A DNA stretch of 64,000 nucleotides from positions 43,036 to 107,035 of the IMG/VR virus record IMGVR_UViG_3300025606_000003; one strand, given 5' to 3'. The position numbers and the translations under genes were made by a program. This document shows positions 1 through 51,599 of the stretch, in pieces (the stretch's first letter is position 1; the number at the start of each line of letters is the position of its first letter). The stretch is from a virus. Taxonomy: Duplodnaviria > Caudoviricetes. The notes under the pieces are model-generated. The model had not been told where the DNA came from and did no database searches. It saw only the letters and a program-made list of their open reading frames with translations.

Positions 1-866
1 TCGTTAGCGGGGTTATACAGAATGGATTCTGTAAGAATTTCTGGTGCTTCTTTCTTAATCGCCGCTTGCTTGACGGGCACCTTGGCCTGCGCCTCGTTGT
101 AAGCCTCCAGCGCGTTGAGCACGTTGGCCGCCAGCTTGCAGGGCTCGCAGTCGCCAATAAACACTTCTTTGGTGGCAGCCTGCTTGGTCAGATGCGGGTA
201 CACGTTGGCCAGCTTGTTGAGCACAGCGGCCCCCTCGTCGCCCAGACGGAGCTCCGTCTCGCGTACGGCGTCCTTGAAGCTCATGTTGCCCGGGCGGCGG
301 AAATACTCGTGCAGCTCCTCCATCGCGGCAGCAGCCTTCGAGTAGGCCACAGTCGCTTGGCGGCGCAGCTCCTCGGCAGCCAGTTCAGCCGCGCGCTTTT
401 CGCTGGCAGCCCGCCGGACAGCCGCTTCGGGATCCCGGGGCGGCGGAGTCCAGGTTTTTTCGGGCAAAGATATCTTTGCGGCCGCGGCTTTGGTCAGCGC
501 TGACTGCCGCCGAGCAATCAGATCACGCACCGGAATGGTGTACTCGGCCGAAACCACGTGCTGCTGCGAGATCTCAGCCGAAGTTTTTACCGCCTTCGGG
601 TACAACCGGTCCATGACGGTATTGGCGTCAGCAATCGGAAAATCAGCGGCCTTGTCGAGCGTATTCTCGCCCTGCTCGCGCTGTTTGGTTGTTCGGCCCG
701 TGTTATACGCGTGAACCATGAGATTCACGTGCCCGGCCGGAACATTCGACTCAGAGGCGCTTTTTACGATTGCGTCGTCGGGCGCCATGCCGTTATTCAC
801 GTAGCCAGCCGCGCGCTCGATGGCAGCGATCAGTTTTTGCTCGGCCTCTTTAGTCAGTGGGCGCAT
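1..866 (-). CDS. Putative virion protein, N-terminal part (runs off the left edge)
   Basis: ATG at 866 with GGAG upstream; open to position 1 (MRPLTKEAEQKLIAAIERAA...); many K-x-A motifs (VKSAS, DKAAD, EKRAA, TKQAA, VKQAA). Confidence 0.7.
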   Translation of the reverse strand, partial: MRPLTKEAEQKLIAAIERAAGYVNNGMAPDDAIVKSASESNVPAGHVNLMVHAYNTGRTTKQREQGENTLDKAADFPIADANTVMDRLYPKAVKTSAEISQQHVVSAEYTIPVRDLIARRQSALTKAAAAKISLPEKTWTPPPRDPEAAVRRAASEKRAAELAAEELRRQATVAYSKAAAAMEELHEYFRRPGNMSFKDAVRETELRLGDEGAAVLNKLANVYPHLTKQAATKEVFIGDCEPCKLAANVLNALEAYNEAQAKVPVKQAAIKKEAPEILTESILYNPAN

Positions 867-4833: not shown

Positions 4834-7245
4834 TTAGTTGTTAGCGACACTGGACAGGTCAACGTCGGAACCAGCCTCTTCCGGATACGGCTCGATGGTT
4901 TTCTGCTTGAGAAAGAGGATAACGTCACCGAGCATCTCAAAGGCGTTGCGTAGCGAGTCTTCCAGTTCCGGCATGTCAGACTTGCCGTAACGCTCGGCAA
5001 ACTTGTCGCCGTGCCAGTAAAACATGAACAGAATGCGGCCAATCTTATCGAGACCTTTGGTCAACTCACCCATGTACCGGTCGACCAGCGAGTCGTCGCG
5101 CACGGCGCGCAGCATGCTGCCGATCATCGCCGTATCAAACACTTCTTTCTGCCCGGACTGCGCAGCCTGCAGCACGTTGTTAATGTCATGCTTGTCAAGC
5201 TTGGTGTTGGGGTTGTAGATCTGCCGATCGGTCTTGGCAGCAGACACGCTCGGCACCGGCACGCCAACATCGATGCCCATCTGCGTAGGAATGTCCGCGC
5301 CCATGATGGTCTCGCCACCCATGATCGGGCCTGGGTCGCTCGGCGCGTTGGGCGCGTCGTTGACCATCATCGGGGCGCCGTACGGATCGGCGTACTTCAC
5401 GCGGCACTCAAATTTGCGCTTAGCGGCCGCCGCCTTGAGAATTTCGCGGGCTGCGCCTTCGCGAAGACCGTGCCGACCTACAAGCGAAATAAGCGCCTGC
5501 TTCTCCGACAGTTCTTTTTCAATTAAGCCAATATGTCCTGGCTGGTGCGAGCACATTTCAACTGCCGTACCGTTGTGATACACAGTCAGCGCCGCGGTCT
5601 TCTGCATCAGCGCCAATTGTGCGTCCACGATGTTGCCTGGCATCAGCGGCGGATCTTTGCTCTCACCGCAGCCGCACACACCCTGATCGTCAGCGTCAGC
5701 CTCCGTTTTGTCGTCCTCGCCGGGCGCGCACTTGAGAGCTTTGAAGCTCTCCGGCACGAAGATGTCGCCCATCGAGCTGCGAAGGCTAGAGCCCTTCTTG
5801 CCGCCCAGATGAACGCGCACACCGTCGCGGTACTTGTCGTAGTTCAGTGGATCCGCGTAGCAGCACGCCGAAATATGCCCCTTCGGCGGATACTTGGAGT
5901 AATCTTCAAGATGAACCTCGTAGCTAGTCGTACCGAATTCATCTTCGCCGAGCTCGCGCAGTACGCGCACCGGGCATGTCGCGTCGCCGTTCTTGCCAAT
6001 CAGCATGGTGCGGGTGCGGCCGGTCGGAAGGCTGGTCGCGTCTTTCAGGCCGTTGAACCAGCTGTCAAACTCCTCGCCTTCGACCTGCGCAATGGCGAAA
6101 ACCTGGTCGGCGCGGGTGTTCACCCAATCGGGTGTGCCCTCGGTGCGCACCACGGTGACAAAGTCCGCGCGCTTGGCGGCGCCCATCGGAAACACGGCGA
6201 CATAGCAGCGCTCGATGTTGCCCGGCTTGACCAGAATGTCGTACAGACCAGAACAGGCCGGCGTGAAAAGTTTCTTCTCGACCTGAATCTGGTAGGGAAT
6301 CGAGACGTTGTCGCGATCCCGCTGGTCGAGAATCAGCACGCCGTCGCGCAACAGCTTTTCCTGGTCTTCCTCGCTGTAACCGGCCGGCAGCTTTGTCTGC
6401 AGCGTGACGTCGAGCGTCACAATCTTGAGGCCGGCAACAGACGCCGGCTCTTTGGGCGCCTCCGACAGCACACTGGCAATCTTCAGCTGCGCATCACGGG
6501 CCTTCGCCGCCGCAATCGCTTCCTTGATTACGCCCAGGCCGTGAAAGTTATCAAACGCCCTGGCGAGCGCCGGGGCGTCCTGGAACGTCTTCACGAGCAT
6601 TTCGACCGTGGTCAGGCGGGCTTCCTTGAGAAACTGCGCCAGGTTGAGTTTCTGGCCCAGCTCAGCCAGCGTGGCGCCTGTGTTCAGCGTGGCGCACTTG
6701 GCCAGGGTCGGCATCACGGCCGTCATCATTTCCCGAAGCGTGGGCTTGGCCGAGCCGAACTTGGCCGGGCTGCGCGAAAGCTGTGTAAAGTCGGGCTGCC
6801 GCTGACCGAGCCCGGACAGATTCCGGTCAACGCTCGAGCCGAGAATATTTGGCTTCCGGTTGATCAGGTAATTGATCCAGTTTTCCTTGAGCGGCACGAA
6901 CATGTCCTGGTTTTTGATGTACAGGAGCTCGTGACCTTTGAGGTCGCCGTTCAGGAAGAAAACAGGCGCGTACAGCCAGTTCGAGCCGACCTTGAAGGCA
7001 AAAACACCGACCGCCTTCGTGTTTTCACGGTTCCGGTCCAACAGCTGGAAGCCGACTTCATGATCCAGCAATTTCGGCGCCGAATCGCGGAGATACGCGT
7101 GCGCAAGATTGCTGAAAGCCTGCTCGAACGACGCGGAGTCGCCTTTGCCGCCAAAATCGGCCACCTTTGTCTGGGTCCGGTCGTGCGAACGGACCACAGT
7201 CAGCAGGTTCTTTAAGGACGATTCGGTATTCTTGCGGTTGTACAC
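4834..7245 (-). CDS. Large putative virion/head protein
   Basis: GTG start after GGAGG; about 800 aa; K-x-A motifs (TKVAD, LKIAS, QKTAA, VKYAD). Confidence 0.7.
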   Translation of the reverse strand: MYNRKNTESSLKNLLTVVRSHDRTQTKVADFGGKGDSASFEQAFSNLAHAYLRDSAPKLLDHEVGFQLLDRNRENTKAVGVFAFKVGSNWLYAPVFFLNGDLKGHELLYIKNQDMFVPLKENWINYLINRKPNILGSSVDRNLSGLGQRQPDFTQLSRSPAKFGSAKPTLREMMTAVMPTLAKCATLNTGATLAELGQKLNLAQFLKEARLTTVEMLVKTFQDAPALARAFDNFHGLGVIKEAIAAAKARDAQLKIASVLSEAPKEPASVAGLKIVTLDVTLQTKLPAGYSEEDQEKLLRDGVLILDQRDRDNVSIPYQIQVEKKLFTPACSGLYDILVKPGNIERCYVAVFPMGAAKRADFVTVVRTEGTPDWVNTRADQVFAIAQVEGEEFDSWFNGLKDATSLPTGRTRTMLIGKNGDATCPVRVLRELGEDEFGTTSYEVHLEDYSKYPPKGHISACCYADPLNYDKYRDGVRVHLGGKKGSSLRSSMGDIFVPESFKALKCAPGEDDKTEADADDQGVCGCGESKDPPLMPGNIVDAQLALMQKTAALTVYHNGTAVEMCSHQPGHIGLIEKELSEKQALISLVGRHGLREGAAREILKAAAAKRKFECRVKYADPYGAPMMVNDAPNAPSDPGPIMGGETIMGADIPTQMGIDVGVPVPSVSAAKTDRQIYNPNTKLDKHDINNVLQAAQSGQKEVFDTAMIGSMLRAVRDDSLVDRYMGELTKGLDKIGRILFMFYWHGDKFAERYGKSDMPELEDSLRNAFEMLGDVILFLKQKTIEPYPEEAGSDVDLSSVANN

Positions 7246-7332
7246 AGCCACCTCCGTGCGGCGTAGCGACAAATGACACTGATAACTCAACAATTTACCG
7301 TGTCTAAGCTCTTACATCCTACCGAAATGCGA

Positions 7333-27641: not shown

Positions 27642-28673
27642 TTAAAGAATCTTTGCCGCAATCAGGCACCCGCGGGCAACCGCGTGCAGCGGATCCCGAG
27701 CGTGCCGCACTTCTTTGACGGGCAGCGGAAAACCGCTGGCCGCCAATTTCTTCTCAAATACCGGCACAAAACCTTTGGCCTGGCTGGTGCCGCCCGCAAT
27801 CACCACCGGCAGCGGCTGTTTGAACTTCGGCAGCAGCTTGTGCCCGGTCATGGCTGCGGCAAGCTGTTTGGTGGTGTAGTCAATCAGGCGCACGTAATAG
27901 CTTGAAACAGCCGCCAGAATATGATTCTCGTTTGGCTGGCCGATCGTGAATTCGCCTTGTTCTTTCTCGGCTTGAACTACCGAGTCAGCCTCGGTAGTTG
28001 CCACAGCTGTCATCCGGTCGATCCAGTCGCCGGACTTAGTCGTGCTGAACATCACGGTCGGCTCGCCGTTGAGCATTACGCAGCAATTCACCATGCCCGC
28101 CCCGCAAGACAGCGCTACGCCTGTGTAATCATCTTGCTCGAGTTCGGAGTAGCACAGCGCCTCAGCTTCGTTGATTGCGCGGGCTTCGTAGCCACATTCG
28201 GCCAAAATGCCCTTTACAACGTCTTCGTGATACCCCACGTCAAAGTCGTCGTCTTCCTGGTCAACAGGCTGCGCTGGAATACAAAACACCAGCTTTTCGT
28301 TGGGCTGGCTGGCCTTGCCGCAGACCTGCTGCAGAATGAATGCCAGCACGCGCCGGGCGTCTTTTTCTTTCACAGACACAACGCCGCGGTGCATCGGCCG
28401 TTTCGCAGAGTCATTGCGCTCGATGGCTTTTTCGATGGCGTCTTTGCCCAACAGAATAAAGCTCCCGTCGGCATCTTTTACGAACACCCGCCCGGCCAGG
28501 CCCTTCTCGATCATCTTGGTAGCCACCGGCGTCGCGGGCTTGATCACGTAGAACGCGTCCCGAAAATCCGTGTAGTCCACGTTGCCGACGCGCACCTGGC
28601 TGGTGGTAGTGTTCGCAGCCGCGTCCTGCGCAAGCACAATAAAACTGGTACCGACGTCGAGTCCCTTGGCCAT
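27642..28673 (-). CDS. Actin-like ATPase (MreB/ParM/MamK superfamily)
   Basis: Phosphate-1 GLDVGTS, connect-1 INEAEAL, phosphate-2 SCGAGMVN, adenosine VIAGGTS, connect-2 PLHAVARG. Confidence 0.88.
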   Translation of the reverse strand: MAKGLDVGTSFIVLAQDAAANTTTSQVRVGNVDYTDFRDAFYVIKPATPVATKMIEKGLAGRVFVKDADGSFILLGKDAIEKAIERNDSAKRPMHRGVVSVKEKDARRVLAFILQQVCGKASQPNEKLVFCIPAQPVDQEDDDFDVGYHEDVVKGILAECGYEARAINEAEALCYSELEQDDYTGVALSCGAGMVNCCVMLNGEPTVMFSTTKSGDWIDRMTAVATTEADSVVQAEKEQGEFTIGQPNENHILAAVSSYYVRLIDYTTKQLAAAMTGHKLLPKFKQPLPVVIAGGTSQAKGFVPVFEKKLAASGFPLPVKEVRHARDPLHAVARGCLIAAKIL

Positions 28674-32308: not shown

Positions 32309-32330
32309 GGCTTTCACTGCGGGTGCGGCG

Positions 32331-32849
32331 TTAGTTCTTCCAAAAAAAGCCCACGCCACGGCCGAGAATGTCGTACGTGACGCTGTAGATCGGCGTGCCA
32401 AGGTGCTGCAAAAAGCGCGGAATGTCGAATTCGTTGACGTCGTGCACGATGAGCAGGCCGTCGTCATCGAGCTTTTCGCGCCAGTACCGGATCAATTCTG
32501 GTACGACTGTCTCGCCGTGAAAAGAGTCGTGAAACACCACTGCGTAACGCCGCGGCAGCTGCAGCTCCGCCTCGCCTGTAATCAGCGCAAACTCTGCGTC
32601 CGGAGCCGCGGCCTGCCGGCGGGGCAGCGAGCCGGGATCTGGATCGCACGATTTCACGCACAGGCCAGCGCGGCTCAACGCCGCCGTGCCGTGCCCCCAG
32701 AACGACCCCACTTCAACTGCTGCGCGGCCGGCGTACGGTTTGACTGTCTGGTAAATCTGCAGAATGTGATTTACGTCTGTGACAAACTCGTGCGAGTAGT
32801 TCATCGCCCGCAAGGCCGCGATGTTCGCGTGATCTTTGAAATTCGCCAT
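32331..32849 (-). CDS. Class I SAM-dependent methyltransferase
   Basis: VEVGSFWGHGT, VFHDSFH, GLLIVHD. Confidence 0.75.
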   Translation of the reverse strand: MANFKDHANIAALRAMNYSHEFVTDVNHILQIYQTVKPYAGRAAVEVGSFWGHGTAALSRAGLCVKSCDPDPGSLPRRQAAAPDAEFALITGEAELQLPRRYAVVFHDSFHGETVVPELIRYWREKLDDDGLLIVHDVNEFDIPRFLQHLGTPIYSVTYDILGRGVGFFWKN

Positions 32850-39900: not shown

Positions 39901-40079
39901 GGTGTTTCCTTTTTGATGCGTTGGCAATTCTTCAACTGATGTTTCAGGCCCCCGCCCACTCGTCGCCAAGCCGTTGTCGGGCTGCGTTACGTCTGGGGGC
40001 GCGTCAGGGCGGCACGAACTCTTATCTGCGTGTGGCACGCAGGCCGCGCCTGACGGTGTTTGTGTGCTGGCGTTTTTGT

Positions 40080-40265
40080 TCAGCGCATCCATACCAAAAC
40101 TCCCAGATAAATGACCCATGTGGCGAGAATCGGGATCAGCCACAGCAGGCGAAAAAGGGGGCCGAAGTCATATGGGCTGGACGGGCTATACGGTCGCAGC
40201 ATCATCAGCAGCATGACGACAGTCATGGCCGCCGGAATGACCCACGCCGGAAACGAAATTGTCAT
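40080..40265 (-). CDS. Small two-TM protein
   Basis: Hydrophobic, AAGGA RBS. Confidence 0.6.
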   Translation of the reverse strand: MTISFPAWVIPAAMTVVMLLMMLRPYSPSSPYDFGPLFRLLWLIPILATWVIYLGVLVWMR

Positions 40266-40450
40266 GGTGCATCCTTACGTGATGGCTCGTTCAAAACCTT
40301 CGGGCGCGTCTGCCGCATTCGGAAAAAGCCGTCGAAGCTGCTGGCAGCCAAAACAATGCCGCCAACAACAACGCCGCCGATCGCTGCGCCCGCAAGCAAC
40401 CACGGCCAAAACATGAGCCCGATAAACAACATCATTCCGAGATAATCCAT
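40262..40450 (-). CDS. Small membrane protein
   Basis: Hydrophobic N-half, coupled start and stop. Confidence 0.6.
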   Translation of the reverse strand: MDYLGMMLFIGLMFWPWLLAGAAIGGVVVGGIVLAASSFDGFFRMRQTRPKVLNEPSRKDAP

Positions 40451-40953
40451 TATTCTTCGCCTTTCCCAGTTGGCCCCGGCGACCGCTTTGCCCAGAACAA
40501 GTTACTCAGCTGCACCCGTGTATATGACTCTGTGAGATTTCCGGCGCTGTCTACCGGCAGGCGCGGATCTTCGCGGTGCCCAACAGGCGCCAGCCATTCG
40601 CCGCATCCGCAGGGCTCGCCTGACGGCGACAGACAGTCACGCGACGCTTCTTCAAACAGGGCGCCGCAAGCATCGCACTCAAACACCCGCCAGCCGGGAA
40701 TCGGTTTACGCATAATTAGGCGTCCTTGCGAAGCTTGCTCGCCGGGCTCTTTGTCGTCCGGCTCAAAGATATCAGGCGCCTTTTTTCCCGCAAGACTGAT
40801 CTCGTAGTCTGCTGGGTAGTGGCGCAAGAGCCGCGCAGCGCGTTGCCGGAGCGCGCGAAAACTGCGAAAGTCGGCAGCTTTACCGGTCAGAATGCTCACC
40901 AGAAACTCGCGGGTGTTCTTCACCGCGCGCGTCCGTTCGTGAGGCAGCGTCAT
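40450..40953 (-). CDS. BPSL0761-like N-terminus fused to a Zn-ribbon
   Basis: MTLPHERTRAV...TREFL...AARLLRHYP; CDACG..C..CGCG. Confidence 0.6.
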   Translation of the reverse strand: MTLPHERTRAVKNTREFLVSILTGKAADFRSFRALRQRAARLLRHYPADYEISLAGKKAPDIFEPDDKEPGEQASQGRLIMRKPIPGWRVFECDACGALFEEASRDCLSPSGEPCGCGEWLAPVGHREDPRLPVDSAGNLTESYTRVQLSNLFWAKRSPGPTGKGEE

Positions 40954-41089
40954 GGTTGAGGCGCGGCTCCGGAGCGTACTGGCACAACCCGCCTTCGCAG
41001 CAAGTTTCCAGAATAAGATGGCAAAACGGGCAGACTTGCTTGCCGCGAATTTCGACCGGCTGAGCTTCGCAGACTGGGCAGACAAGCAT
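40880..41089 (-). CDS. Small Zn-finger protein
   Basis: CPVC...CPFC...ETCCEG. Confidence 0.5.
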   Translation of the reverse strand: MLVCPVCEAQPVEIRGKQVCPFCHLILETCCEGGLCQYAPEPRLNHDAASRTDARGEEHPRVSGEHSDR

Positions 41090-41138
41090 ATGCCACCTTT
41101 GCTGGTTCTGCAAGTCAGATCAATCCGCCGCCAGTTGG

Positions 41139-41492
41139 CTAGATTCTGTCCGAGTCAGGAATGAATTTTTGCTCAAACGCCGCGTATACCTCAGCGTAGG
41201 CTACACCCCAGGCAGCATCGTGCGACAGCCGGTTAAACGTGATGGCGTCAGCTGTGTCTAACAGATGATTCCAGGCCCGCGCGTGTGCCCATTCGTGCAG
41301 CAAGACTTCAATAGCGCGGGCTTCATCTAGATTTTTATCGATCTCGATTACAAACTTTTTGCCTTCCTTCCAGCAACGGCCGTCAAGTTGCCGGGGCATA
41401 ACAATTCGTCTGACAGAGATCGGATACGCCGGCGCGCAGTGCTGTCTTAGTATTGTCACAAGCTGTCTGTACCGGCTGTAGCGCGCAGCCAT
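41139..41492 (-). CDS. Small HExxH metallopeptidase-like protein (SprT-like)
   Basis: LLHEWAHA and later HDAAWG; GGAGG RBS. Confidence 0.7.
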   Translation of the reverse strand: MAARYSRYRQLVTILRQHCAPAYPISVRRIVMPRQLDGRCWKEGKKFVIEIDKNLDEARAIEVLLHEWAHARAWNHLLDTADAITFNRLSHDAAWGVAYAEVYAAFEQKFIPDSDRI

Positions 41493-41616
41493 GCGTAATC
41501 CTCCGTGACATGTGACAAATACGCCCAGGTTGCCCAGCAAACCCGGCTGCGCGACACCAACGTCCAGTGTTAGTGCGGCCCTGATTATACAGCAGCTGGA
41601 AAACCAAACTGCAGGC

Positions 41617-44600
41617 CTAAATTCGCGATTTGTTAGCGGCTAGATATGCAGCCGCCGCGCCTAAACCGCCGCCGCCTAGAACGCTGCTCCAGTACAGCAG
41701 CGGATTTGTGTCTTTTTTGTTGCGGGTCAGATAGTGCCCCAAAGCTGCGCCGGCCGCGGTGCCGCCGGTGGTATATCCGATATGCTTGAGTTTGTCCCGG
41801 AAATTGATCAGCGCCTCAGCCTTGGGCAGGTAATTCCCGGTTTGATCTGCGTAACCGGGGCCCGGATTCTCCGCCTCGAGCCGGAATTGCTGCTGGTCAG
41901 TCGGCAAAGACTTGTAAAAGTCTTCCATGAGCTTGACCTGCTCTTCATGCGGCATGAACCGGGTAGTAACCTCAAACGGATTGATCCGCTGGCCGGCGCG
42001 CTGAGCCACGAAATCCTCTAGCTTGCGGCCCATCCAGTCGCTGTAACGCGTGCCCGGCGGCGCCAGCGTTTCCGGTACAGCCCTGTCAGAGAGCCGCGCC
42101 TTGAGCTGGTGCATGTAAGCTGCTACCGGGCCGCGCGAGAACATTTCGTAATGCGCCATACCGCCTACGCCCCGCTGCTCGGCAGGCGTTTTCAGCAAAT
42201 ACGGCTCTGTGCCAAGCCGTTTCATCAAAGTCGGCGAGCTGCGCAGCTTGACCAGTAACTCGCCGACAGGGATACCAAACGGCTTGAGCTGCGCGCCGGG
42301 GCTGAGCGTTTTCTGGTAATAGGTCAAGCCAGTGTAGTTCGGCGGCGGCGTGTTGTTTCGAAACACGTTCGGGTCGTAGTTTTTGACAGCGGCGCGCACC
42401 CGGGCAACCTGCTCGTCGCTCGCAATACCGTAAGCACCGCCAACGCCAAGTTTGCCGGCCAATCCCAACGCCGGAATCATCCACGGAAGCTTCGCAGGTA
42501 ACTTCGCAGGTAACTTCGCCGGGGTTTTCTTGTCGTCTGGCGAAGTCGCGTCGGACTTAGTTTTGGGCTTATGCTCAGGCTTGTCTGTGATTTTTGCCGT
42601 TTTTTGCTGCGTGCCAATCTCGCGCAGCAGCTGCCGAAACTGCTCGTTGAGATGTTCTTTTGTGCTGGCCAGATGCTGGATTACCTCATCGCCGGTGCGC
42701 TGCCGCCGCTGGCCAGTGAGCTTGCCGAGTAGCCCGGGCTCTTCGCTGCGAGATAGATATCTTTGCACGGCGACGTTCTTGAGCTCTTCCGGTAAACCAT
42801 CGTGCGAATCAAATCTGAGGCCGCGACCCTGGGCTTGTTGCAGTCTGGCTTCGTTCCAGTACGGGTCGAGCAGCTGGATCAGGCTTGTACCCTTGGTACT
42901 CAAACCCTCGGCGCCAGCCGGGCCGATCAGCAGCGCCCGGAGTTTGCCCGCGTTATAGTCAGCCAAGGCCTGCTGACGTTGCTTGGTCGAGATACCGCCG
43001 TGGAAAATACCGTACGGAATTTTGTTCTCGGCCAGCCCAGCAGCATACGGACTCAAACCGGCGTCTACGAAGTTCGAGTAAATAATGGCCTTCTTGCGCT
43101 CGTCTGAGTTTAACGTCTCGCGCAGCCGCTTGAAGGCCTCCTGCAGCTTCGCAGATTGCTGGAAGGCCTTTAGCGGGCTCTTGTCGGCCCGGAACGGCTG
43201 CGTAGACAGAGATACCTGCCGCATGCCGGTCATGAAGCTGTTCAGCTTGGCCAGTTCTTCGCGGCTGAGGGGGAACTCTTGATCTAGCTTCCAGAGAAAC
43301 CCAGGCGGTATCTTGGTCCGGATAGCTTTCTGAATACGCTGTTGCTCGGCGCTCAGCGGCACAGACACAGTCTCTTCGTTGATATTCACGCCGGTGGGCG
43401 CTTTGCTGGGCTGGTAATCAATATGGCCCTCGAGCAGCTTGCGCAGTTTGGGGCCGTTCTTCATGATCGGCGTCACACCGGTGCCGGCGCCGTGCAGAAA
43501 GCCCCAGAAGCTCGGCCAAACCTTCTTTTCGCCGATGAAGTCTTTGTCGAACTGCGCAGGGTCATACTTCTCGTTCCGAACAATAGATATCAAACTGGCC
43601 AGGTCTTTTGGCTCGTTCGTAATCGGCGTGCCAGTGAGCAGCATCACTCGTTTGGCGAGGCCGGCGTTTTGCAGGGCGGCTCTGCTCATGGCCGCGTCTG
43701 GATTGCGCAGCCGCGCGGCCTCGTCCATGATGAGCGTGTCAGGCTGCTTCTGGAATTTCTTGCCCATTCCGAGCCCGGTGTAGCTCATGACTTCCGGATG
43801 ACTATCAGTGAACTTCTTGATTTCTTTCTGAAAGTTCCCGCGCAGGCTGGCCGGCGCAACAATGCCGTAGCTGCTGCCGTCGAGCTTTTTGGCGGCTTCT
43901 GCTGCAGCAATCGCCGAGAGAGATTTTCCTGAACCTAGACCGTGATACACGATCATCCGGGGATCTTCGCCAGAAACCCGGTCAGCAATACGTTGCTGGT
44001 GTTCTTGTAGCTGGATTTCGGGCAGCAAAGCAGCTTGTTTACCCAGGCCCTGCACGTACTTCTGCATGGCTTTGCGCTGGTGCTCGTCCAGCATCTCTAC
44101 TACACCGTTTTGCGCCTCGTTAGGGACCATTTTTGCAGGGTCGATCGCCCAGTTGCGCAGCGCCCAGCCCCGCCGTGGCGTTGGGTTCTTGGCAAACGAA
44201 CTGCCGTGCCGGGCTTTGAAGCTCAGCCAGCGCTTGATCTGCCGCGCGTCTTCATCTGGAATTCTGCGCCCAGAAGCATAGCGCTTGTACCACTGCGCCC
44301 AGCCTTTGGGATCATGCTCAGAGATCCACTCGGGCTTCCACTCGCCTAGACTGGCCAGTCTGGGACCCTGCCCTCGGTACAGCGCGTCATACACGCCTAG
44401 GTTTTCAAGCTGCTCTGGCGTGTAGTCTGGCGTAAAGTCGGCAGCAAGCTTCGCCCACGCCCGGCCAGCTGCAACAGCTGCGCTATTTTTTTGCCGCGGC
44501 GGGAGGTTGTTGTAATACCCCTCCGATCCCGGCAGCGCTTCACCCGTAAAACCGTGATCATACACGTACCGCTTACTGTGGTTGTACGTGCCTTTGAGCA

Positions 44601-45975
44601 TAGACTGCAAAAAATTATCTTTCGAGCCCGTCTCGGGTTGCGTAGGTCCGATATCATACGCGGGCGCCGACCAACCGGACCGCCCGGGTCCAAGGCCGCG
44701 CCACGATTCGTTCCGTCTAAAAGCATTTTGCGGCCCCCAATGCTGGCCGTCCTCATTGTGGCCGTAGATGTGCGGGTCAACGGGGCCATCAGTTATAGGC
44801 ATACCGTCAACAGTGCCTATTACTTCTGCATTGTCTTTTGGAAAAGTTATGCCAGTTGTTTTTGTGATACGCTTTTGTAACTCCGCCATGGACAGCCCAG
44901 CAGTCTGGTCTTGTGTGTCCTGCGGCGGCGCAGCAGCGTAGCTTTTGGGATTCCCGGCGGCGTTGTATTGCTGCATTTGCATACGCAGCCACGCCTGACC
45001 AGCGGGCGCGTTAAGCAGCTGCGTCATGTTCTTATCGCCACCGAGCGGCGCGTACCCATGTTGCTGTGCTTGTTGCCGCATCCAGTCAATCTTAGGCGCA
45101 TAACCCGGGGCTAACGACACGCGAGCTTGCACCGGAGCGCCAGTGGCTGTGCGCGCAGCGTCGGCAGCATTTACAAACTCACCCATGACAGCGCCGGGCT
45201 CGTGAAAATGAGCGGAAGGATGTGCCTCGAAAGCGCCCGACATGGGCGTGACTTCCATGCCTGTATCTTGAATCTGCTTCAATGCCGGCGGCGCTTGCGG
45301 CACATGTTCAAGTTCATGCAACCCAATAAGTGACCGGGGCAACGCTTTGCCCCACGTGTTGGCATCTTGAAAGTAGTTTTTATCGCCCTCGTATTTCGTA
45401 CCCATCCAATTGTTTTGCCCGGCGTACTGCTGTTTTGGATTGTTGGGCAAATTCAACGTAGGCGGTGCGGCGCCATGTGGCGTAACGTTTGAGCCCATGA
45501 GCTTGCCGGCGGGGTCTTCAACAAGCTCAAAAGGTGTCCGTTTCTGGACGTTCGCGATTTGGTCTTGAAATTTTTTATCTAGAACGCCGGTGTACCGTTG
45601 CATGCTATCAGGCTGCGCAACGCCCGATTGCGAAGCTGCCGGCGCATTATGTTGCTGCAAATGATCTTGCACGGAGCGATAAAAATTTTGCCTGTTTTGG
45701 CCAAAATCGTGGTCATCCCCCGAGTAGTTATTTCTCATCCACGCGGTCGACGCGGCGGCCGTGGCCTGCGGCGTATTCAAAAACGGCAGTTTTGGCACGA
45801 CCGTATTTGGCGGTGCAACGGGCGCCGCCGCTGAAGGCGCCGGTTTAGGAGTTGCTGGCGCGGGCGGCAGCGGCGTGGCAGCCTGCTTTGCCCACGCTTT
45901 GCCGGCAGCCTGCGCACCGGTCTCGTCGCCTGGCTCAGCGCCGGTTCTATCCAGACTGGGAGCGTTCTCGGGCAT
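41617..45975 (-). CDS. Multi-module virion protein containing a SNF2-family helicase
   Basis: GLGSGKS, DEAA, TGTP, EGLS, QAQGRGLR (about 42600-44030); HELEH module; DPKGWAQWY..RY..GRR module; C-terminal Gly-zipper. Confidence 0.85.
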   Translation of the reverse strand: MPENAPSLDRTGAEPGDETGAQAAGKAWAKQAATPLPPAPATPKPAPSAAAPVAPPNTVVPKLPFLNTPQATAAASTAWMRNNYSGDDHDFGQNRQNFYRSVQDHLQQHNAPAASQSGVAQPDSMQRYTGVLDKKFQDQIANVQKRTPFELVEDPAGKLMGSNVTPHGAAPPTLNLPNNPKQQYAGQNNWMGTKYEGDKNYFQDANTWGKALPRSLIGLHELEHVPQAPPALKQIQDTGMEVTPMSGAFEAHPSAHFHEPGAVMGEFVNAADAARTATGAPVQARVSLAPGYAPKIDWMRQQAQQHGYAPLGGDKNMTQLLNAPAGQAWLRMQMQQYNAAGNPKSYAAAPPQDTQDQTAGLSMAELQKRITKTTGITFPKDNAEVIGTVDGMPITDGPVDPHIYGHNEDGQHWGPQNAFRRNESWRGLGPGRSGWSAPAYDIGPTQPETGSKDNFLQSMLKGTYNHSKRYVYDHGFTGEALPGSEGYYNNLPPRQKNSAAVAAGRAWAKLAADFTPDYTPEQLENLGVYDALYRGQGPRLASLGEWKPEWISEHDPKGWAQWYKRYASGRRIPDEDARQIKRWLSFKARHGSSFAKNPTPRRGWALRNWAIDPAKMVPNEAQNGVVEMLDEHQRKAMQKYVQGLGKQAALLPEIQLQEHQQRIADRVSGEDPRMIVYHGLGSGKSLSAIAAAEAAKKLDGSSYGIVAPASLRGNFQKEIKKFTDSHPEVMSYTGLGMGKKFQKQPDTLIMDEAARLRNPDAAMSRAALQNAGLAKRVMLLTGTPITNEPKDLASLISIVRNEKYDPAQFDKDFIGEKKVWPSFWGFLHGAGTGVTPIMKNGPKLRKLLEGHIDYQPSKAPTGVNINEETVSVPLSAEQQRIQKAIRTKIPPGFLWKLDQEFPLSREELAKLNSFMTGMRQVSLSTQPFRADKSPLKAFQQSAKLQEAFKRLRETLNSDERKKAIIYSNFVDAGLSPYAAGLAENKIPYGIFHGGISTKQRQQALADYNAGKLRALLIGPAGAEGLSTKGTSLIQLLDPYWNEARLQQAQGRGLRFDSHDGLPEELKNVAVQRYLSRSEEPGLLGKLTGQRRQRTGDEVIQHLASTKEHLNEQFRQLLREIGTQQKTAKITDKPEHKPKTKSDATSPDDKKTPAKLPAKLPAKLPWMIPALGLAGKLGVGGAYGIASDEQVARVRAAVKNYDPNVFRNNTPPPNYTGLTYYQKTLSPGAQLKPFGIPVGELLVKLRSSPTLMKRLGTEPYLLKTPAEQRGVGGMAHYEMFSRGPVAAYMHQLKARLSDRAVPETLAPPGTRYSDWMGRKLEDFVAQRAGQRINPFEVTTRFMPHEEQVKLMEDFYKSLPTDQQQFRLEAENPGPGYADQTGNYLPKAEALINFRDKLKHIGYTTGGTAAGAALGHYLTRNKKDTNPLLYWSSVLGGGGLGAAAAYLAANKSRI

Positions 45976-46041
45976 ACGGGCATCCTTGCCGAGAGCCAAT
46001 AGATATCTTTGCGCGCAGCTCAGCGCGCAAGAGCTCTGTTA

Positions 46042-46488
46042 TTACCGCTTCAGCGCACCCATGCCTGTGCCGCGAGGCGGTGTGGGTGTGGCGGGGCCAG
46101 GCCGGCGATCGCCGTACTGCATCGGCTGCCGCGGCGCGCCGGTACTAAACGTGGATCCATATCCGTCATTGACCCGGTACGCGTGCCCAGGTGTGACAGA
46201 GCGCCTGATATCGGTGTTACCCACGCCGCCAATCCCGCTTAGCCGTGGCTCCGTGTAATCAGCCTGCATCATGTCTTCGCCGGCGTTCGTCGTCTGTATT
46301 GAATTCGACACGTCTCCGGGGCCGGATTGTAAGTATTTGTGCCAACTTGGAGCCGTGTCGAGATAGTTTGGCGGCACTTTTTCGGCGTAACCGGCGTGTT
46401 GCTTGGGGTATTGATTGGCGACCGCCGTGGCGATTCCGTTCATGTCGATCGACAACTTGACCATTCTTCCAAACTGAAACGCGTTCAT
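46042..46488 (-). CDS. Hypothetical protein with FGRMVKLS leader
   Basis: Leader motif shared with neighbouring virion proteins. Confidence 0.6.
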   Translation of the reverse strand: MNAFQFGRMVKLSIDMNGIATAVANQYPKQHAGYAEKVPPNYLDTAPSWHKYLQSGPGDVSNSIQTTNAGEDMMQADYTEPRLSGIGGVGNTDIRRSVTPGHAYRVNDGYGSTFSTGAPRQPMQYGDRRPGPATPTPPRGTGMGALKR

Positions 46489-46558
46489 GTGTGCACTCAC
46501 TTTTGGGTTTACTGCAAGTTTACCGGCACTGTTTTAACTTACGGCGTGATCAGATCTG

Positions 46559-47992
46559 TCACTGTTGGGGCGCAGGCGGGCGACGGCTCATCACCTCAGC
46601 CATGCCAACGTCGCCACCGGCAGACGGATACTTGCGCAACAGCTCGCGCTCACCGCCTAACCGATGCTGTTTGATATCAGCTTCGCTAGGCGGCCCAGCC
46701 TGCGTGTTCGGCTCGAGACCGATATTGTCCGTCAGCTCCCGAAGACGGCCGGCTTCTTGAAACAGCGCCCGTTGCTGCGCGCTAGGCGGCCCAGCCTGCG
46801 TGTTCGGCTCGAGACCGATGTTGTCCTTCAGCTCTTGCAGCCGACCGGCTTCCTGAAACAGCGCCCGTTGCTGCGCGAGTTGTTCCGGCAGCACGAGGTT
46901 ATTCGGGTCATCTCCGGCCGGTTCTTGGTCGCCGGCAGCCAACAGCGCAGCGTGATCTTCAGGGGCTGCGCCACCGCCCGCCGAAAGCTGCGCCATTTGC
47001 CGCTCGTGCGCCTTTAGCGCCTCAGACTTGGGCGCCTCTGGAGTTACAGGCGGCTTGCTCCCGCCGAGCTGCGGCAACTTGTCCTTGAGCGAACCAAACA
47101 TTTTCTGCAGCTTGGCGATCTGGTTCGGCGCAAAGCCGCCGACACCAGCGCCAACGCCACCGCCGACAAGACCACCACCGAGCGCACCACGCAACGCAGC
47201 GCCAAGGCGGCCTTTGCGCTGTTTAACAATATTTCCGGCGTCGTCAACAGTCTCTTCTTCGCCCGGATTGAACGCGCCGTACAGGCCGCCAGCCAACGCA
47301 CCCAGACCCGCGCCGCCGAGACCGCCCGCCATCATGGCCGGCGCCCGACTGGGGTTGTGGGGATCAGGCAGCGTGAGCTCGCCCTCGCCCTCGGCCCGCT
47401 TTTCGGCGACGGCCCGTTTGACATAAGCGCCAAACGCGCGCATGTTGGCAGCCTTCTGTTGCTGCTGTTGGCGCTTGTTTTTCCGTGCCGAGTACTTGAA
47501 TTCCATGGAAGAATCTCCTTGAAGGAAAGTAATATCCTGAGCCGTGTTTTTTTTCTCGAGATCGCCGTAAACCAGTTGGCCGCCCGGCAAGTCAGACTGC
47601 CGACGCATGCTGTATTCCATAAGCTCGGGTATACGATTGATCTTGCGGGCCATATCTTCGCCCCAAGTATCTTGCTTACCGGTGATCGCGTTATGAAGGG
47701 CATGCCCAATATCTTCGGTTTTGTACTTGAGCCCTAGGCCAACCCCAGGCAGCCCATACTCAGCAGCGCCACCCAGCGCGCCACCAGCGGCGCCTCCGAT
47801 GAGCGCTCCGCGCAGCCGTTTACCCTTACCGGCTGCCAGAGCGCCAACGCCGGTGCCAAGTCCGGCGGCCATCAACGGCGCAATAAACGCCGGGTCAATG
47901 GCAGAGCTAGCTCCAGCTTTCACAGCGGAGAGCGCGCCGGCTCGGTATTGAAGCTTCTGTGCCATATACTGCGGCCCACACAACAGCATCAA
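46559..47992 (-). CDS. Gly-zipper virion protein with internal 32-aa duplication
   Basis: Two RLRGAL.G..GG hairpin modules; EKRA, QKAA motifs. Confidence 0.7.
   Translation of the reverse strand: MMLLCGPQYMAQKLQYRAGALSAVKAGASSAIDPAFIAPLMAAGLGTGVGALAAGKGKRLRGALIGGAAGGALGGAAEYGLPGVGLGLKYKTEDIGHALHNAITGKQDTWGEDMARKINRIPELMEYSMRRQSDLPGGQLVYGDLEKKNTAQDITFLQGDSSMEFKYSARKNKRQQQQQKAANMRAFGAYVKRAVAEKRAEGEGELTLPDPHNPSRAPAMMAGGLGGAGLGALAGGLYGAFNPGEEETVDDAGNIVKQRKGRLGAALRGALGGGLVGGGVGAGVGGFAPNQIAKLQKMFGSLKDKLPQLGGSKPPVTPEAPKSEALKAHERQMAQLSAGGGAAPEDHAALLAAGDQEPAGDDPNNLVLPEQLAQQRALFQEAGRLQELKDNIGLEPNTQAGPPSAQQRALFQEAGRLRELTDNIGLEPNTQAGPPSEADIKQHRLGGERELLRKYPSAGGDVGMAEVMSRRPPAPQQ
46685..46876. repeat. Near-identical 96-bp tandem duplication
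   Basis: AQQRALFQEAGRL.EL.DNIGLEPNTQAGPPS x2. Confidence 0.9.
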
Positions 47993-48046
47993 AACAACAC
48001 GGAATTACGCAAAACTACGCAAGAATATGGCAGTATACCAACTAAC

Positions 48047-49576
48047 CTACCCGATAGTTAGCAACTCGTAGCGGATATGCCTGCCAAACTCACGCGGGGT
48101 GATTGCGGCAGCTTTGCGCAGCGGTTTTTTATCTTTTTGCTCAGGTTTTTTTGTGCTTGTGTTTTTTTTATCGTCACGGTCGGGCATTTTGATCGTAGCG
48201 GGCGAAGTATCTTTGTCTTTTTCGCTGTGCGACTTGGCGGGTTTTTGAGGCTCGTTGACGTACTTTCCGCCACGGCGGCGCGACTCCATCAGGCCAAACC
48301 GTTTACCCTGCAGCATGCCGTAAAGCGGCAGCATGGCCGCAAACGGCCCTGCAAACGGCGCTGCGGCAGCCCCCATGTAGCTGCCATACCCAGCCGGCAG
48401 CATTTTTTGCCGGTCGTCTAGAATCTTGTTCAGTTTGGCCGGGTTGTCTTTGTACGTACGCCGCAGATTCTTTTCGCTCAGTCTGTTGGCTTGCGCTTCT
48501 TGATACAGCGCGTGAAACATGCCGACCGTAGGCACCATGCGGCCAGCACCGTAAACATCGTGCAGTAAACCTTTACCCTGCCGCTTGAGCCATGTTTTTA
48601 CTTTGTTTTCGTTGTCGGAATATTCCGGAACTTTGTTGCTGTTGAAATCAAGCGCGTGCCCAATTTCGTGCGTCAGTACCGCCGGCTTGTCGCCCATCAA
48701 ATACGTGCTATTTGTAGCCGGGTTAAACAATGAGCCACGCAGTAACGCGGCATACAACTGCGTCGCGGGATGCTGCGCCAAGCCGAGTAGCTTTCCAGCA
48801 ACCGATGTTCGCGGGTTCTTGAAGATACGCGGAATCTCGCGAAAGAAATCACCGCCGCCCAGGTACACACGGTGATCTTTGAGCGCTTCCGGATCCGCGC
48901 GCTCCATGTCTTTGGCTAACTGCGTAAGTTTCTGTGCGCGCGCGTCGTCAGGGCTGATCTCTGGCGTGAGATAACCGCCGTTCGCGCCTTGCCACTGTGT
49001 CGGATTCACGTGACTGCGCAGCGACATGATTGTGCCGCCTGGAAATGCGCCAAGATGCCCAACCGTTGAGGCCAATGCGCGCGCACCCAGACCGCCCCGC
49101 ATGACCTCGAGCGCCGCAGATTTGTCCTGCAAACTGGTTACGGCGCTGGTTGTTGGGCTGGGTACAGCTGCCTGTTTTGGCTGCTGCCCGTAAATTTCAT
49201 CGTAGGCTGCGTATACGGGCAGTTTACTGTGATCGCTGTACAACTCGCTGATTTTGTGCTTTGGCGTAATACCCGGAGGCGCCGCCAGCGAAAAAAAGTG
49301 CGGAAACACTTCGTCATTGAGTCCGGTTAACGGCCGTTTTTGCAGCAAATCCGCGTATGCCTCGGCCGGCACAGGATCGCCATACCGCACGTTTGTAAAT
49401 CCAAGTTTGTAGCCGGCTTTGTTCGCATGCGCAGCGGCTGCGCGCAAGTACTCTGGAAATTTCTTGTAATCCGTTTTGTCGTCAAACAACCACGGCGTAC
49501 GGTCAGAGAGCCCGTAATCGTCCGCGGCGCCGTATGCCCGCTTTATGTTGTTAGCAACAGATGTTTCAGGCGGCAT
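48047..49576 (-). CDS. Modular virion protein with zincin-like HExxH domain
   Basis: VLTHEIGHALD and QEAQAN; IKRA, PKQAA, DKSAA, RKAAA motifs. Confidence 0.7.
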   Translation of the reverse strand: MPPETSVANNIKRAYGAADDYGLSDRTPWLFDDKTDYKKFPEYLRAAAAHANKAGYKLGFTNVRYGDPVPAEAYADLLQKRPLTGLNDEVFPHFFSLAAPPGITPKHKISELYSDHSKLPVYAAYDEIYGQQPKQAAVPSPTTSAVTSLQDKSAALEVMRGGLGARALASTVGHLGAFPGGTIMSLRSHVNPTQWQGANGGYLTPEISPDDARAQKLTQLAKDMERADPEALKDHRVYLGGGDFFREIPRIFKNPRTSVAGKLLGLAQHPATQLYAALLRGSLFNPATNSTYLMGDKPAVLTHEIGHALDFNSNKVPEYSDNENKVKTWLKRQGKGLLHDVYGAGRMVPTVGMFHALYQEAQANRLSEKNLRRTYKDNPAKLNKILDDRQKMLPAGYGSYMGAAAAPFAGPFAAMLPLYGMLQGKRFGLMESRRRGGKYVNEPQKPAKSHSEKDKDTSPATIKMPDRDDKKNTSTKKPEQKDKKPLRKAAAITPREFGRHIRYELLTIG

Positions 49577-49603
49577 GCGACAGCTTTTCTAAAAATGGCC
49601 TGG

Positions 49604-49637
49604 TTAGATATCCCGGTTAGATATCAATTAGATATCA
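49604..49637. repeat. Triple TTAGATATC cluster
   Basis: GATATC at 49607, 49620 and 49631, each preceded by TTA, essentially intergenic. Confidence 0.9.
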
Positions 49638-51479
49638 GTGTTCGATCTCAGCGCCGTGGGCCGTTGAACCTAACCCGGCGCCAAAGCCGTTACTGTGCGC
49701 CATCGCGTGCTCAAGGCCGTGCAACACCGGGTGCGCAACGGTGTGCGCGGCTTCATATGGCAGCGCGAGACTGTGCGGCAGTAAATTAGTTGGGTTGCCG
49801 GTGTTCGCAAAATTAGTCGGGCCGTTCAACGGGTGGCCGATAGCATCTGCGCCAAGATTGCGCGCCGCCTGCTCAATCGGCGCGCCAATGTTATGCTCAT
49901 AGGCGCGCCATAGATTCTGCGCAGTTTCTGGGACTGCTCGCTGGATCTGTTTGCCAAGCTGGGTTTTCATGTCGCCAAACCGAGCAGCCGTGTTAAGCTG
50001 CGCGTCGCTAAGCCGCAGCGCTGTTTGATGGCCGAACTGTGACAGGTTTCCTGCATACCGGGAAAACGTCGGGAGCATTTGTTGCACGCGCGGGTTTGCA
50101 GCTGCCGCGCCCAGTGCGCCGGCAGCCGTTGTGCCGGCTTGCGCAGCTGTGGTGCCGCCAGCAGCAGCAACAGCCGGAGCAGCCGCAGCTGCGCCGGCCA
50201 CAGCCGGAATTGCTGCAGCAGCTCCGGCGCCCACACCCAGGGCGCCCTGCCCAATCCGCATGTTTTGGGCTTCTCGCGGATCTGTTACTTGCTGGCTTGT
50301 ATTTGGGTTGTACCAGCGACTCAGCGTGTCTTGATAGCCGGCCCGGCCGAACAACCCGCCGATTTGCTTTGGCATCAGCGCGTCTGTGCCAGCAGCCGAG
50401 CGGTTTGGAGTTAGGCCTGTCGGTGCAGCCTGCTGTGGGGCCGCGCCAGTAGTTACCAGCGGCGATTGGGCTGGCTGCAAAGCTGGCGGTGAGCTTGGCG
50501 GCGAGCTCAGCGGTTGCGGTTTAGGCGGCGCCAGCGACGTGGCCGACGTGACAGGCGTAAACTGCCCAGGAGCTTTGCCGGCTGCCGGGCCGGGCCTATT
50601 CAGCGACAGCGTGCCAGACGTTGAAGTTTGGTTTCCTGGTTGTGAATACGGCGCGAACTCTTGGGCCAACTTTAACCGCACAAGTTTGCCGAACTGATAT
50701 GGCTGCATATCGTCAGCTGTCTTTACAGCCCCGGCAATCTTCGAGCTATCCGGCGAGTTCTTTGCGCCGAATGCAGCGTTGCCGTTGAGCTGGCCCTTGT
50801 TGCCCAGGGCGCCGAAAGCCTGAATCGGATTGTGCTGCGGATTGGAGCCCCCACCGACAGGCCCGGCAGGCTGTGTGTTTGCGGGATGCTGCGCAGCCGG
50901 TTGAGCAGCAGCATTTCCAGCGGGGGGCGCCATCCCCATCGGCAGCGGAATCATCGGCGCCGGCATGGACATGCGCTTTAAAAGCATGTTTTGCGGCACG
51001 AAACGCGGGTCGCGGCCTTCCTGTCCAGCATGATGCGCCTCCATCATTTCGCGCAACGGCTTCGCAAGAACTACGGCTAATTTACCGAAAATGGCTTCGA
51101 CAGAGTTGGAGCTGTGATTTTTGCCGTCTGGGCTCGAGTTATGTGTTTCGTCCTGTTTTGGCTGGATTTCTGTACTGTCCTGGCCTGCGTAAGTCGGTTT
51201 GTCGTTCTGTGGCATCTTGACTTGCACCATCCCAGAGTTGGCTTGCTTTATCTCGTTGCCCAGTATAGAGTTACGCTCAGTTTTTTTGGCGTTAGCAAAA
51301 ACTGATAAAACGTTATCAAGTACGGCCAGCGCGGCGGCCTTCTCTTTGGATTCTGGTTCTTGCTTATTTGCGTACATAGGCAGCTTCTTTTGGTTCGGGT
51401 ATTCGTGCGCCCAGCGTTTGGCAATATCCGGATGTGCCGCCCAAAGAAAACGGCGCTGTTTTTCGGATTTAAACGGCAT
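49635..51479 (-). CDS. Modular low-complexity virion protein
   Basis: MPFKSEKQRRFLWA..P..AKRW N-terminal module; EKAAA, IKQAN, SKIAG, VKTAD, LKLAQ; Gly/Ala zipper. Confidence 0.7.
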   Translation of the reverse strand: MPFKSEKQRRFLWAAHPDIAKRWAHEYPNQKKLPMYANKQEPESKEKAAALAVLDNVLSVFANAKKTERNSILGNEIKQANSGMVQVKMPQNDKPTYAGQDSTEIQPKQDETHNSSPDGKNHSSNSVEAIFGKLAVVLAKPLREMMEAHHAGQEGRDPRFVPQNMLLKRMSMPAPMIPLPMGMAPPAGNAAAQPAAQHPANTQPAGPVGGGSNPQHNPIQAFGALGNKGQLNGNAAFGAKNSPDSSKIAGAVKTADDMQPYQFGKLVRLKLAQEFAPYSQPGNQTSTSGTLSLNRPGPAAGKAPGQFTPVTSATSLAPPKPQPLSSPPSSPPALQPAQSPLVTTGAAPQQAAPTGLTPNRSAAGTDALMPKQIGGLFGRAGYQDTLSRWYNPNTSQQVTDPREAQNMRIGQGALGVGAGAAAAIPAVAGAAAAAPAVAAAGGTTAAQAGTTAAGALGAAAANPRVQQMLPTFSRYAGNLSQFGHQTALRLSDAQLNTAARFGDMKTQLGKQIQRAVPETAQNLWRAYEHNIGAPIEQAARNLGADAIGHPLNGPTNFANTGNPTNLLPHSLALPYEAAHTVAHPVLHGLEHAMAHSNGFGAGLGSTAHGAEIEH

Positions 51480-51599
51480 GGCGCGATTCCCTATCAGAAT
51501 AGCGTTATCTTAGCAAACTGATATGGAAAGCACTGATAGCTAAAAAAAGGCCGCAAAGGCCTTCGTGGTGAGTTGACGGCGTCGCCAACTCACCACTAA

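Follow-up and report, generated by a model that had tools for sequence, protein, structure and literature searches.

The window analysed here is a 64,000-nucleotide stretch (positions 43,036 to 107,035) of the IMG/VR virus record IMGVR_UViG_3300025606_000003, a 107-kb viral contig that CheckV rates as about half complete. Its source is an uncultured phage of about 200 kb, a distant relative of Salmonella phage Arash. Our subject is a single open reading frame (ORF) at 41617-45975 on the minus strand, which encodes a 1452-aa protein made up of a SNF2 helicase and several other modules, with short Lys-x-Ala (K-x-A) motifs at their borders. The protein is read from an ATG at 45975; a TTG at 45999 is a possible alternative start, but the ATG is preferred because the N termini of the family read 'MPD../MPE..'.

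The original prediction, made from the letters of the window, had described one ORF with four K-x-A sites, and all of these were located: K30 (45888) within AAGKAWAKQA, K509 (44451) within AAGRAWAKLA, K646 (44040) within GLGKQA, immediately after which LLPEIQLQEHQQR starts, and K1125 (42603) within QQKTA. The first two junctions do share the AAG(K/R)AWAK peptide, as had been noticed, and AWAK has no other occurrence in the window outside this gene. A fifth site, K496-N-S, lies 13 aa ahead of K509. The parts of the protein, together with the neighbouring and head-module genes discussed below, are listed in Table 1; the DPKGW..RQIKRW module corresponds to residues 512-648 (module B), and the two Gly/Ala-rich segments of module C (residues 1165-1185 and 1426-1447) are only moderately hydrophobic.

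Table 1. Coordinates of the helicase gene, its parts and associated features (window positions unless stated otherwise)
Feature	Position	Strand	Description
Whole ORF	41617..45975	-	1452 aa + stop; predicted polyvalent cargo polyprotein
Leader	45880..45975	-	Residues 1-32; ends in tag AAGKAWAK-Q-A (K30)
Module A	44482..45879	-	Residues 33-498; zincin-like, HELEH at 220-224 (45304-45318)
Spacer	44443..44481	-	13 aa between K496-N-S and K509-L-A; carries AAGRAWAK; two-site junction tag, predicted helical
Module B	44032..44442	-	Residues 512-648 (DPKGWAQWYKRY..GRR..RQIKRW); all-helical by model
SNF2/SWI2 ATPase	42595..44031	-	Residues 649-1127; K646-Q-A before, K1125-T-A after
Module C	41620..42594	-	Residues 1128-1452; Lys/Pro-rich linker, then domain between two Gly/Ala-rich segments
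Tag peptides			AAGKAWAKQAAT; EFGEKQAL; GLGKQAALLPE
SprT-like zincin	41139..41540	-	133 aa, HEWAH; alternative candidate processing protease
Small upstream ORF	46042..46500	-	N terminus MNAFQFG.., matches 'F-x-F-G' leader of relatives' stand-alone genes
614-aa protein	49635..51479	-	Conserved N-domain (about 1-240) and variable C-part
478-aa scaffold-like protein	1..866	-	N-terminal 288 aa in window (gene extends past window start); 8 K.A[AD] vs 0.95 expected
819-aa head-module protein	4834..7293	-	Homologue of Arash structural protein gp218; 5 K.A[AD] vs 0.85 expected
486-aa predicted capsid protease	contig 39904-41364, outside window		Middle of head block

Pfam recognises only the SNF2 ATPase in this protein (residues 650-1060), with both of its domains above the curated cut-offs (Helicase_C, 51.6 bits against 23.5; SNF2-rel_dom, 39.5 bits against 24.9). 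The helicase is complete and has Walker A (GLGSGKS, 679-685), DExx (MDEAARL, 750-756; DEAA, 750-758) and motif VI (QAQGRGLRFDSH, 1047-1058); Walker A, DExx and the arginines of motif VI are invariant in an alignment of 18 sequences. It is a generic SNF2 ATPase, whose nearest sequence relatives in the PDB are SsoRad54, CHD1, ISWI, Rad26 and vaccinia NPH-I. A helicase match of 24% identity (E 6e-30) was also found on an IMG/VR contig (L079) labelled as a giant-virus metagenome-assembled genome.

Module A has no Pfam match at E up to 0.1, and in the predicted structure of residues 1-649 its predicted local distance difference test score (pLDDT) is below 50 over most of its length. Module B is modelled confidently as an all-helical domain (pLDDT 85-93), and the junction tag (residues 495-513) is predicted as a helix continuous with it. 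Searches with module B gave no Pfam match, no significant PDB sequence match and no usable Atlas match; its best fold match, the C-terminal domain of mimivirus R596 (3td7_A, Z 5.6, root-mean-square deviation (rmsd) 5.7, 120 aa aligned), is at the noise level for helical domains and we claim no family for it.

A search of 5.8 billion proteins returned 120 homologues of 803-2184 aa, many of them on contigs of about 200 kb. Across these homologues the SNF2 core is 65-76% identical, with query coverage of only one third to two thirds. When the proteins were cut at K-x-[A/S] sites coinciding with BLAST breakpoints, and modules of 40 aa or more were counted, the 121 proteins segmented into 74 module families and 116 distinct architectures, with NUDIX, P-loop kinase and ART-like domains among the accessory modules. 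The helicase is present in all 121 proteins and module B in 115, ahead of the helicase 109 times and behind it 6 times. Of the 19 copies of module A (family F3), 10 precede the helicase in the chain and 9 follow it, and 16 of the 19 retain GLHExxHxxQ; module C (family F9, 10 copies) is C-terminal in every one. The helicase-then-B order is common among IMG/VR loci, and module B also occurs as a stand-alone gene, which on one 201-kb contig overlaps the stop of the helicase gene; further stand-alone B proteins are found on other long contigs. The modules can thus be found alone or in other orders in relatives, as had been anticipated. The description of the protein as four unrelated modules has to be amended: module B and the helicase are a conserved pair, and modules A and C are swappable accessories. 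As in polyvalent proteins, unrelated domains share one phage polypeptide and the architectures vary among homologues.

The gene itself lies in a hypervariable island (window 40450-51500) whose gene content is almost wholly different among related contigs, the helicase gene being the sole constant. The island is anchored by the N-domain of the 614-aa protein and by the SprT-like gene.

The borders of these modules coincide with the K-x-A motif. Over all pairs of homologues, 63% of homology breakpoints are no more than 8 residues away from a K-x-[A/S] site, against 10% expected, which bears out the proposal that the sites mark domain edges; the control motifs R.A, Q.A and K.[LV] are at about 1x. 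With the borders of module B and the helicase excluded, the enrichment is 2.2x, 2.8x and 3.6x with rising breakpoint support. Internal copies of individual modules were also examined for K-x-[A/S] within 8-14 aa upstream. The motif is found there for the helicase (95/95), families F2 (37/37), F4 (19/20) and F11 (7/7), the ART-like modules (22/25) and the kinase (9/9), whereas the control R-x-[A/S] is found 0-3 times at the same positions in these six families. Internal copies of module B are preceded by the motif in 36 of 80 cases, and many of the remaining copies are near the protein start after short leaders. Regardless of the upstream module, K-x-[A/S]-[A/D/E]-L-x-P is found ahead of the helicase, and T-Q-x-K-T-A-A-x-E-F-G-x-K-x-A or a variant containing Trp comes after it. 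The extended form of the tag, [I/L]D[I/V][I/F]A.AAG[K/R]AWAK.A, serves as the N-terminal leader of many homologues and occurs in up to five copies inside one protein; the leader tag of the protein described here is the same as this N-terminal leader (position about 16) in many homologues.

The positions of the sites also agree with the ends of proteins that exist on their own. The stand-alone helicase of Arash starts 3 residues past the Ala of K646-Q-A, and a stand-alone B protein (P0275) ends 6 residues before it. For modules at the start of a protein, the median distance between Met1 and the K-x-A cut position of the internal copies is 3-9 residues. Stand-alone B and other small genes adjoining the helicase gene open with ..FGxK-x-A or K-x-AA..FGEK-x-A, and this FGEK-x-A leader is the same peptide as that found C-terminal to the helicase within the polyproteins. 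In the 614-aa protein of the window, a K-I-A..K-T-A-D..YQFGKLV tag lies exactly at the border between the conserved and variable parts.

The same motif is abundant in the head-gene module of this phage. Over the phage's own contig, 62 K.A[AD] sites are observed against 31 expected from shuffles, and the excess is concentrated in six head-module proteins of one gene block. Besides the scaffold-like 478-aa protein and the 819-aa protein (Table 1), the carriers include a 127-aa protein (6 sites, 0.8 expected) and an acidic Gly/Met-rich protein of 464 aa. In about 40 related contigs the same ortholog groups contain 3.9-27 K.A[AD] sites per 1000 residues, 4-6x the compositional expectation, and control motifs (reversed, shifted or with Arg) are low and not enriched in these groups. 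In the other 350 proteins K.A[AD] is below expectation (0.42 per 1000 against 0.65). The motif in the leaders and linkers at the predicted cargo junctions is the one that also marks the scaffold and core proteins, as in cargo of the T4 IP/Alt type.

In the middle of the head block is a 486-aa protein that matches, by its predicted fold, the gp21/assemblin class of capsid serine proteases. At 50% identity, relatives of its N-domain fall into more than 2,500 clusters. His103 and Ser164 are invariant. Sequence and profile searches of the PDB found nothing for this protein, and Pfam assigned no peptidase family to 54 of its relatives; it was fold comparison alone that gave a match. The best structural match of the model (pLDDT 85) is T4 gp21 (5jbl_A, Z 10.1, rmsd 3.6, 141 of 165 residues); capsid proteases of herpesviruses, more than 30 in all, come next (Z 5.5-9.6). 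The Foldseek E-values were weak on their own. Two genes on is a 308-aa protein, 92% identical among relatives, that matches the major capsid protein of Arash (E 2e-21). Searches of Pfam and PHROGs with the neighbours of the helicase gene and with the head-module proteins gave nothing useful. Many relatives of the protease (P0123, P0138, P0179, P0236 and others) have lengths of 600-1300 aa, and their match to the 260-aa domain is broken up into two or three stretches, which suggests that these genes carry large insertions, possibly inteins or homing elements.

Phage Arash provides a cultured point of comparison. It shares with this phage the order of the head genes: a beta'-like RNA polymerase subunit, the helicase, gp218, a homologue of the protease (gp222, 38% identity) and the capsid protein. 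Its helicase, gp217, is a homologous SNF2 ATPase (33% identity, E 3e-66) that sits in the head gene module beside the RNA polymerase beta' gene but, unlike the protein described here, is a stand-alone protein of 472 aa without module B, accessory modules or tags. In virion mass spectrometry gp217 was abundant (38 unique peptides, 1148 spectra), along with the RNA polymerase beta (3516 spectra) and beta' (1210 spectra) subunits (PMC10585845); the supplement to that study is a gene table and holds no peptide list. Two Arash proteins, gp220 (4 K.A[ADE] sites, 0.8 expected, p 0.006) and gp225 (4 sites, 0.5 expected, p 0.002), are enriched in the motif. The window itself encodes an 1802-aa protein (10140-15548, minus strand) in which Rpb2 (beta) domains are followed by the N-terminal domains of Rpb1 (beta'), apparently fused, and, near it, a 624-aa homologue of the beta'-like Arash gp216 (7333-9207, minus strand); in Arash such subunits are among the most abundant virion proteins.

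We consider it fairly probable that the 1452-aa protein is a polyvalent cargo polyprotein whose modules are tagged for targeting and for cleavage by the head protease. In such a polyprotein, helical module B and the SNF2 ATPase would form a conserved chassis to which swappable accessories are attached, in this case the zincin-like module A and the Gly-rich module C. Each module would be preceded by a short tag with a Lys-x-Ala/Ser core, often lengthened into a predicted amphipathic helix (..AAG[K/R]AWAK-x-A or ..FGEK-x-A) and flanked by a second K-x-A. The tags would act in the manner of the T4 capsid-targeting and cleavage leader, so that the precursor would be incorporated into the prohead and cut there at K-x-A, probably after the Ala, by the protease of gp21/assemblin fold. 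Cuts after each K-x-A/S would yield the 32-aa leader, module A as a zincin-like protein of roughly 50 kDa, the 13-aa spacer, module B (15 kDa), the helicase (54 kDa) and a Gly-rich protein (35 kDa), and the released products would remain in the head and enter the cell along with the DNA. The most likely role of the helicase, together with module B, would be to serve the phage RNA polymerase packaged alongside it, as suggested by its position next to the RNA polymerase gene in Arash and its detection with the polymerase in virions. The original proposal of a packaged polyprotein cut into separate injected enzymes is, on this evidence, partly supported: the computational checks suggested with it all turned out favourably.

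Several observations weigh against this interpretation. Within the protein itself the number of K.A[AD] sites is at chance (3 observed against 1.8 expected, p 0.28), and the bare count was rejected as a test of significance; the non-randomness of its sites lies in their placement and their conservation in homologues. At the fourth site, QQKTA-K, the residue after the motif is Lys and not Ala or Asp. The expectation that K-x-A would be conserved at junctions held for the core modules and fell short at the accessory ones: at non-core junctions no more than about 30% of the well-supported breakpoints have K.A at a distance of 8 aa or less (3.6x). A strict rule of K-x-A at every junction was consequently rejected; for well-defined modules the rule has almost no exceptions, but it is not universal. 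Scaffold proteins often contain Ala/Lys-rich helices, and these may account for part of the enrichment in the head module, although the directional controls (reversed and shifted motifs) speak against helix composition as its source. The Arash virion list runs to 116 proteins and includes replication enzymes, which makes the presence of gp217 suggestive only (PMC10585845). The SprT-like zincin next to the gene, and module A, are alternative candidates for the cutting enzyme. What the analysis shows is how the protein is built from modules, the conserved tag, the concentration of the motif in head-module proteins and the fold of the protease, whereas cleavage, the scissile bond, packaging, injection and the partner of the helicase are inferred.

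An unlikely alternative is that the protein works uncut, the K-x-A tags being conserved flexible or helical linkers that double as homology patches for the exchange of cassettes. The extreme shuffling exactly at the tags would be expected in this case, as would the low frequency of K-x-A at accessory junctions and the predicted continuity of the junction helix with module B, and some plasmid polyvalent proteins are transferred full-length (Iyer et al., PMC5512222). The two tags of the window, on the other hand, differ at synonymous and non-synonymous positions while the peptide is kept, which we read as selection on the protein; in a nucleotide alignment of the four sites, protein-level selection is not separable from recombination. 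A recombination scar would also leave unexplained why the same motif occurs in the scaffold-like proteins beside the head protease, both in this clade and in Arash, and is hard to accept because the tag is retained as an N-terminal leader on separate, stand-alone genes.

It is also possible, though we regard it as improbable, that K-x-A is cut not by the head protease but by a zinc metalloprotease, before or after delivery: the SprT-like protein, a HEIGH protein encoded at 48047-49576, or module A acting in cis. Nearly every related locus has the SprT-like gene directly after the helicase gene, module A has largely retained its GLHExxHxxQ motif, and autoproteolysis by such zincin-like metallopeptidase domains has been proposed by Iyer et al. 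(PMC5512222). Module A, however, is present in only 19 of the 121 family members, whereas all of them have tags; Arash has no detectable homologue of the SprT-like zincin (E up to 1), yet the motif is enriched in two of its head-module proteins; and the densest carriers of the motif are the scaffold-like proteins that flank the protease of gp21 fold. The HEIGH protein (minus strand, 509 aa) has a weak Peptidase_M13 match (E 0.006) and three K-x-A-A sites, and its homologue in a relative (L064) has the leader K-K-T-A-A-M-L-F-G-E-K-C-A.

K-x-A might also have no function of its own and simply reflect a composition rich in Ala and Lys together with conserved residues at domain N termini. This would fit a three-residue motif and its chance-level count in this protein, but is disfavoured and very improbable, since K-x-A, and not Arg-x-Ala, precedes seven unrelated module families (module B less consistently), reversed and shifted motifs show no enrichment, and the Arash helicase is without these residues, which are therefore not part of the helicase fold.

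Returning to the tagged polyprotein, a more general proposal, which we put forward tentatively, is that a portable Lys-x-Ala tag, recognised by a head protease of assemblin fold, is in use in a large clade of phages of about 200 kb, most of them uncultured and Arash being the cultured outlier, so that almost any enzyme module could be loaded on the helicase chassis or on its own small gene and be released as an injected protein. If true, the cleavage code would be new, and the phages would have a natural plug-and-play means of cargo loading. Should the tag prove to be a genuine targeting and cleavage signal, it would define a Lys-x-Ala specificity for a large unstudied branch of capsid proteases and explain how dozens of enzyme modules are exchanged without loss of delivery. 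It would also offer, like the T4 capsid-targeting sequence, a short peptide for putting foreign proteins into capsids, and the SNF2 ATPase and its partner domain B would join the virion proteins that accompany the multisubunit RNA polymerase of phages. The question is directly testable, as Arash grows on a laboratory strain of Salmonella, shares the protease and the head-gene order, and has two head proteins enriched in the motif.

Other proteins of the window, all encoded on the minus strand, were noted in passing. A 343-aa protein (27642-28673) has a full-length match to the Volactin family of Pfam (PF25216, E 1e-61), a member of the actin family, in this phage of about 200 kb. In a 694-aa protein (30383-32467), a mannosyltransferase-like domain (PF11051, E 4.5e-39) is accompanied by another region that resembles glycosyltransferases. 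Residues 519-546 of the protein at 35669-38071 form an island of 26-28 aa, ARCWxGYEPVPGKxPYSxxSCRP, that shows 74-92% conservation among proteins of 550-780 aa in relatives, although these proteins cannot otherwise be aligned. In the variable block upstream of the helicase gene, a Gly/Ala-rich protein of 477 aa (46559-47992) contains a stretch of about 31 aa that is internally duplicated almost without change (QQRALFQEAGRL.EL.DNIGLEPNTQAGPPS).

Among known systems, the polyvalent proteins of phages and conjugative elements are the nearest in architecture. They combine many unrelated enzyme domains, and both their delivery with DNA and the proteolytic release of their domains have been predicted (Iyer, Burroughs, Anand, de Souza and Aravind 2017, PMC5512222). 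Like the family described here, they have highly variable architectures with SWI2/SNF2 ATPase, zincin-like metallopeptidase, ART-like, kinase and NUDIX modules (PMC5512222). The present family differs from them in having a portable K-x-A tag on its modules that is common to head scaffold and core proteins, which points to a capsid protease and not to autoproteolysis by a metallopeptidase. In addition, its helicase is paired with module B, whereas that of DarB is paired with a DNA methylase.

In phage T4, IPI-III and Alt carry a capsid targeting sequence and are cleaved by gp21 (reviewed in PMC9026906; Mullaney and Black 1996, cited in PMC10052503). As predicted for the phage studied here, a short N-terminal leader ends in the motif of the head protease, and the head module includes the gene for a protease of this fold; the T4 cargo includes enzymes that act early on the host. 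The T4 motif is Leu/Ile-x-Glu and not Lys-x-Ala, and in this family the tags are internal as well as N-terminal, with several predicted cargoes per chain.

The proteases phiKZ gp175 and SPN3US gp245 process head and ejection proteins (PMC10052503, PMC5694885), the latter cutting after A-x-E and removing propeptides of 20-254 residues in several steps (PMC10052503). These are also large phages with a virion RNA polymerase, many internal proteins and a repeated three-residue code (P3-x-P1). In SPN3US the code is A-x-E and what is removed are mostly N-terminal propeptides, whereas K-x-A cleavage would separate whole enzymes.

Herpesvirus assemblin has the fold of the protease model described here (Z up to 9.6), as judged from the predicted structure. 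Assemblin cuts after the Ala in (V/L/I)-x-A|S, a P3-x-Ala shape like that of K-x-A. Its P3 residue is hydrophobic and its substrate is the herpesvirus scaffold, whereas here P3 is Lys and the predicted substrate is phage cargo.

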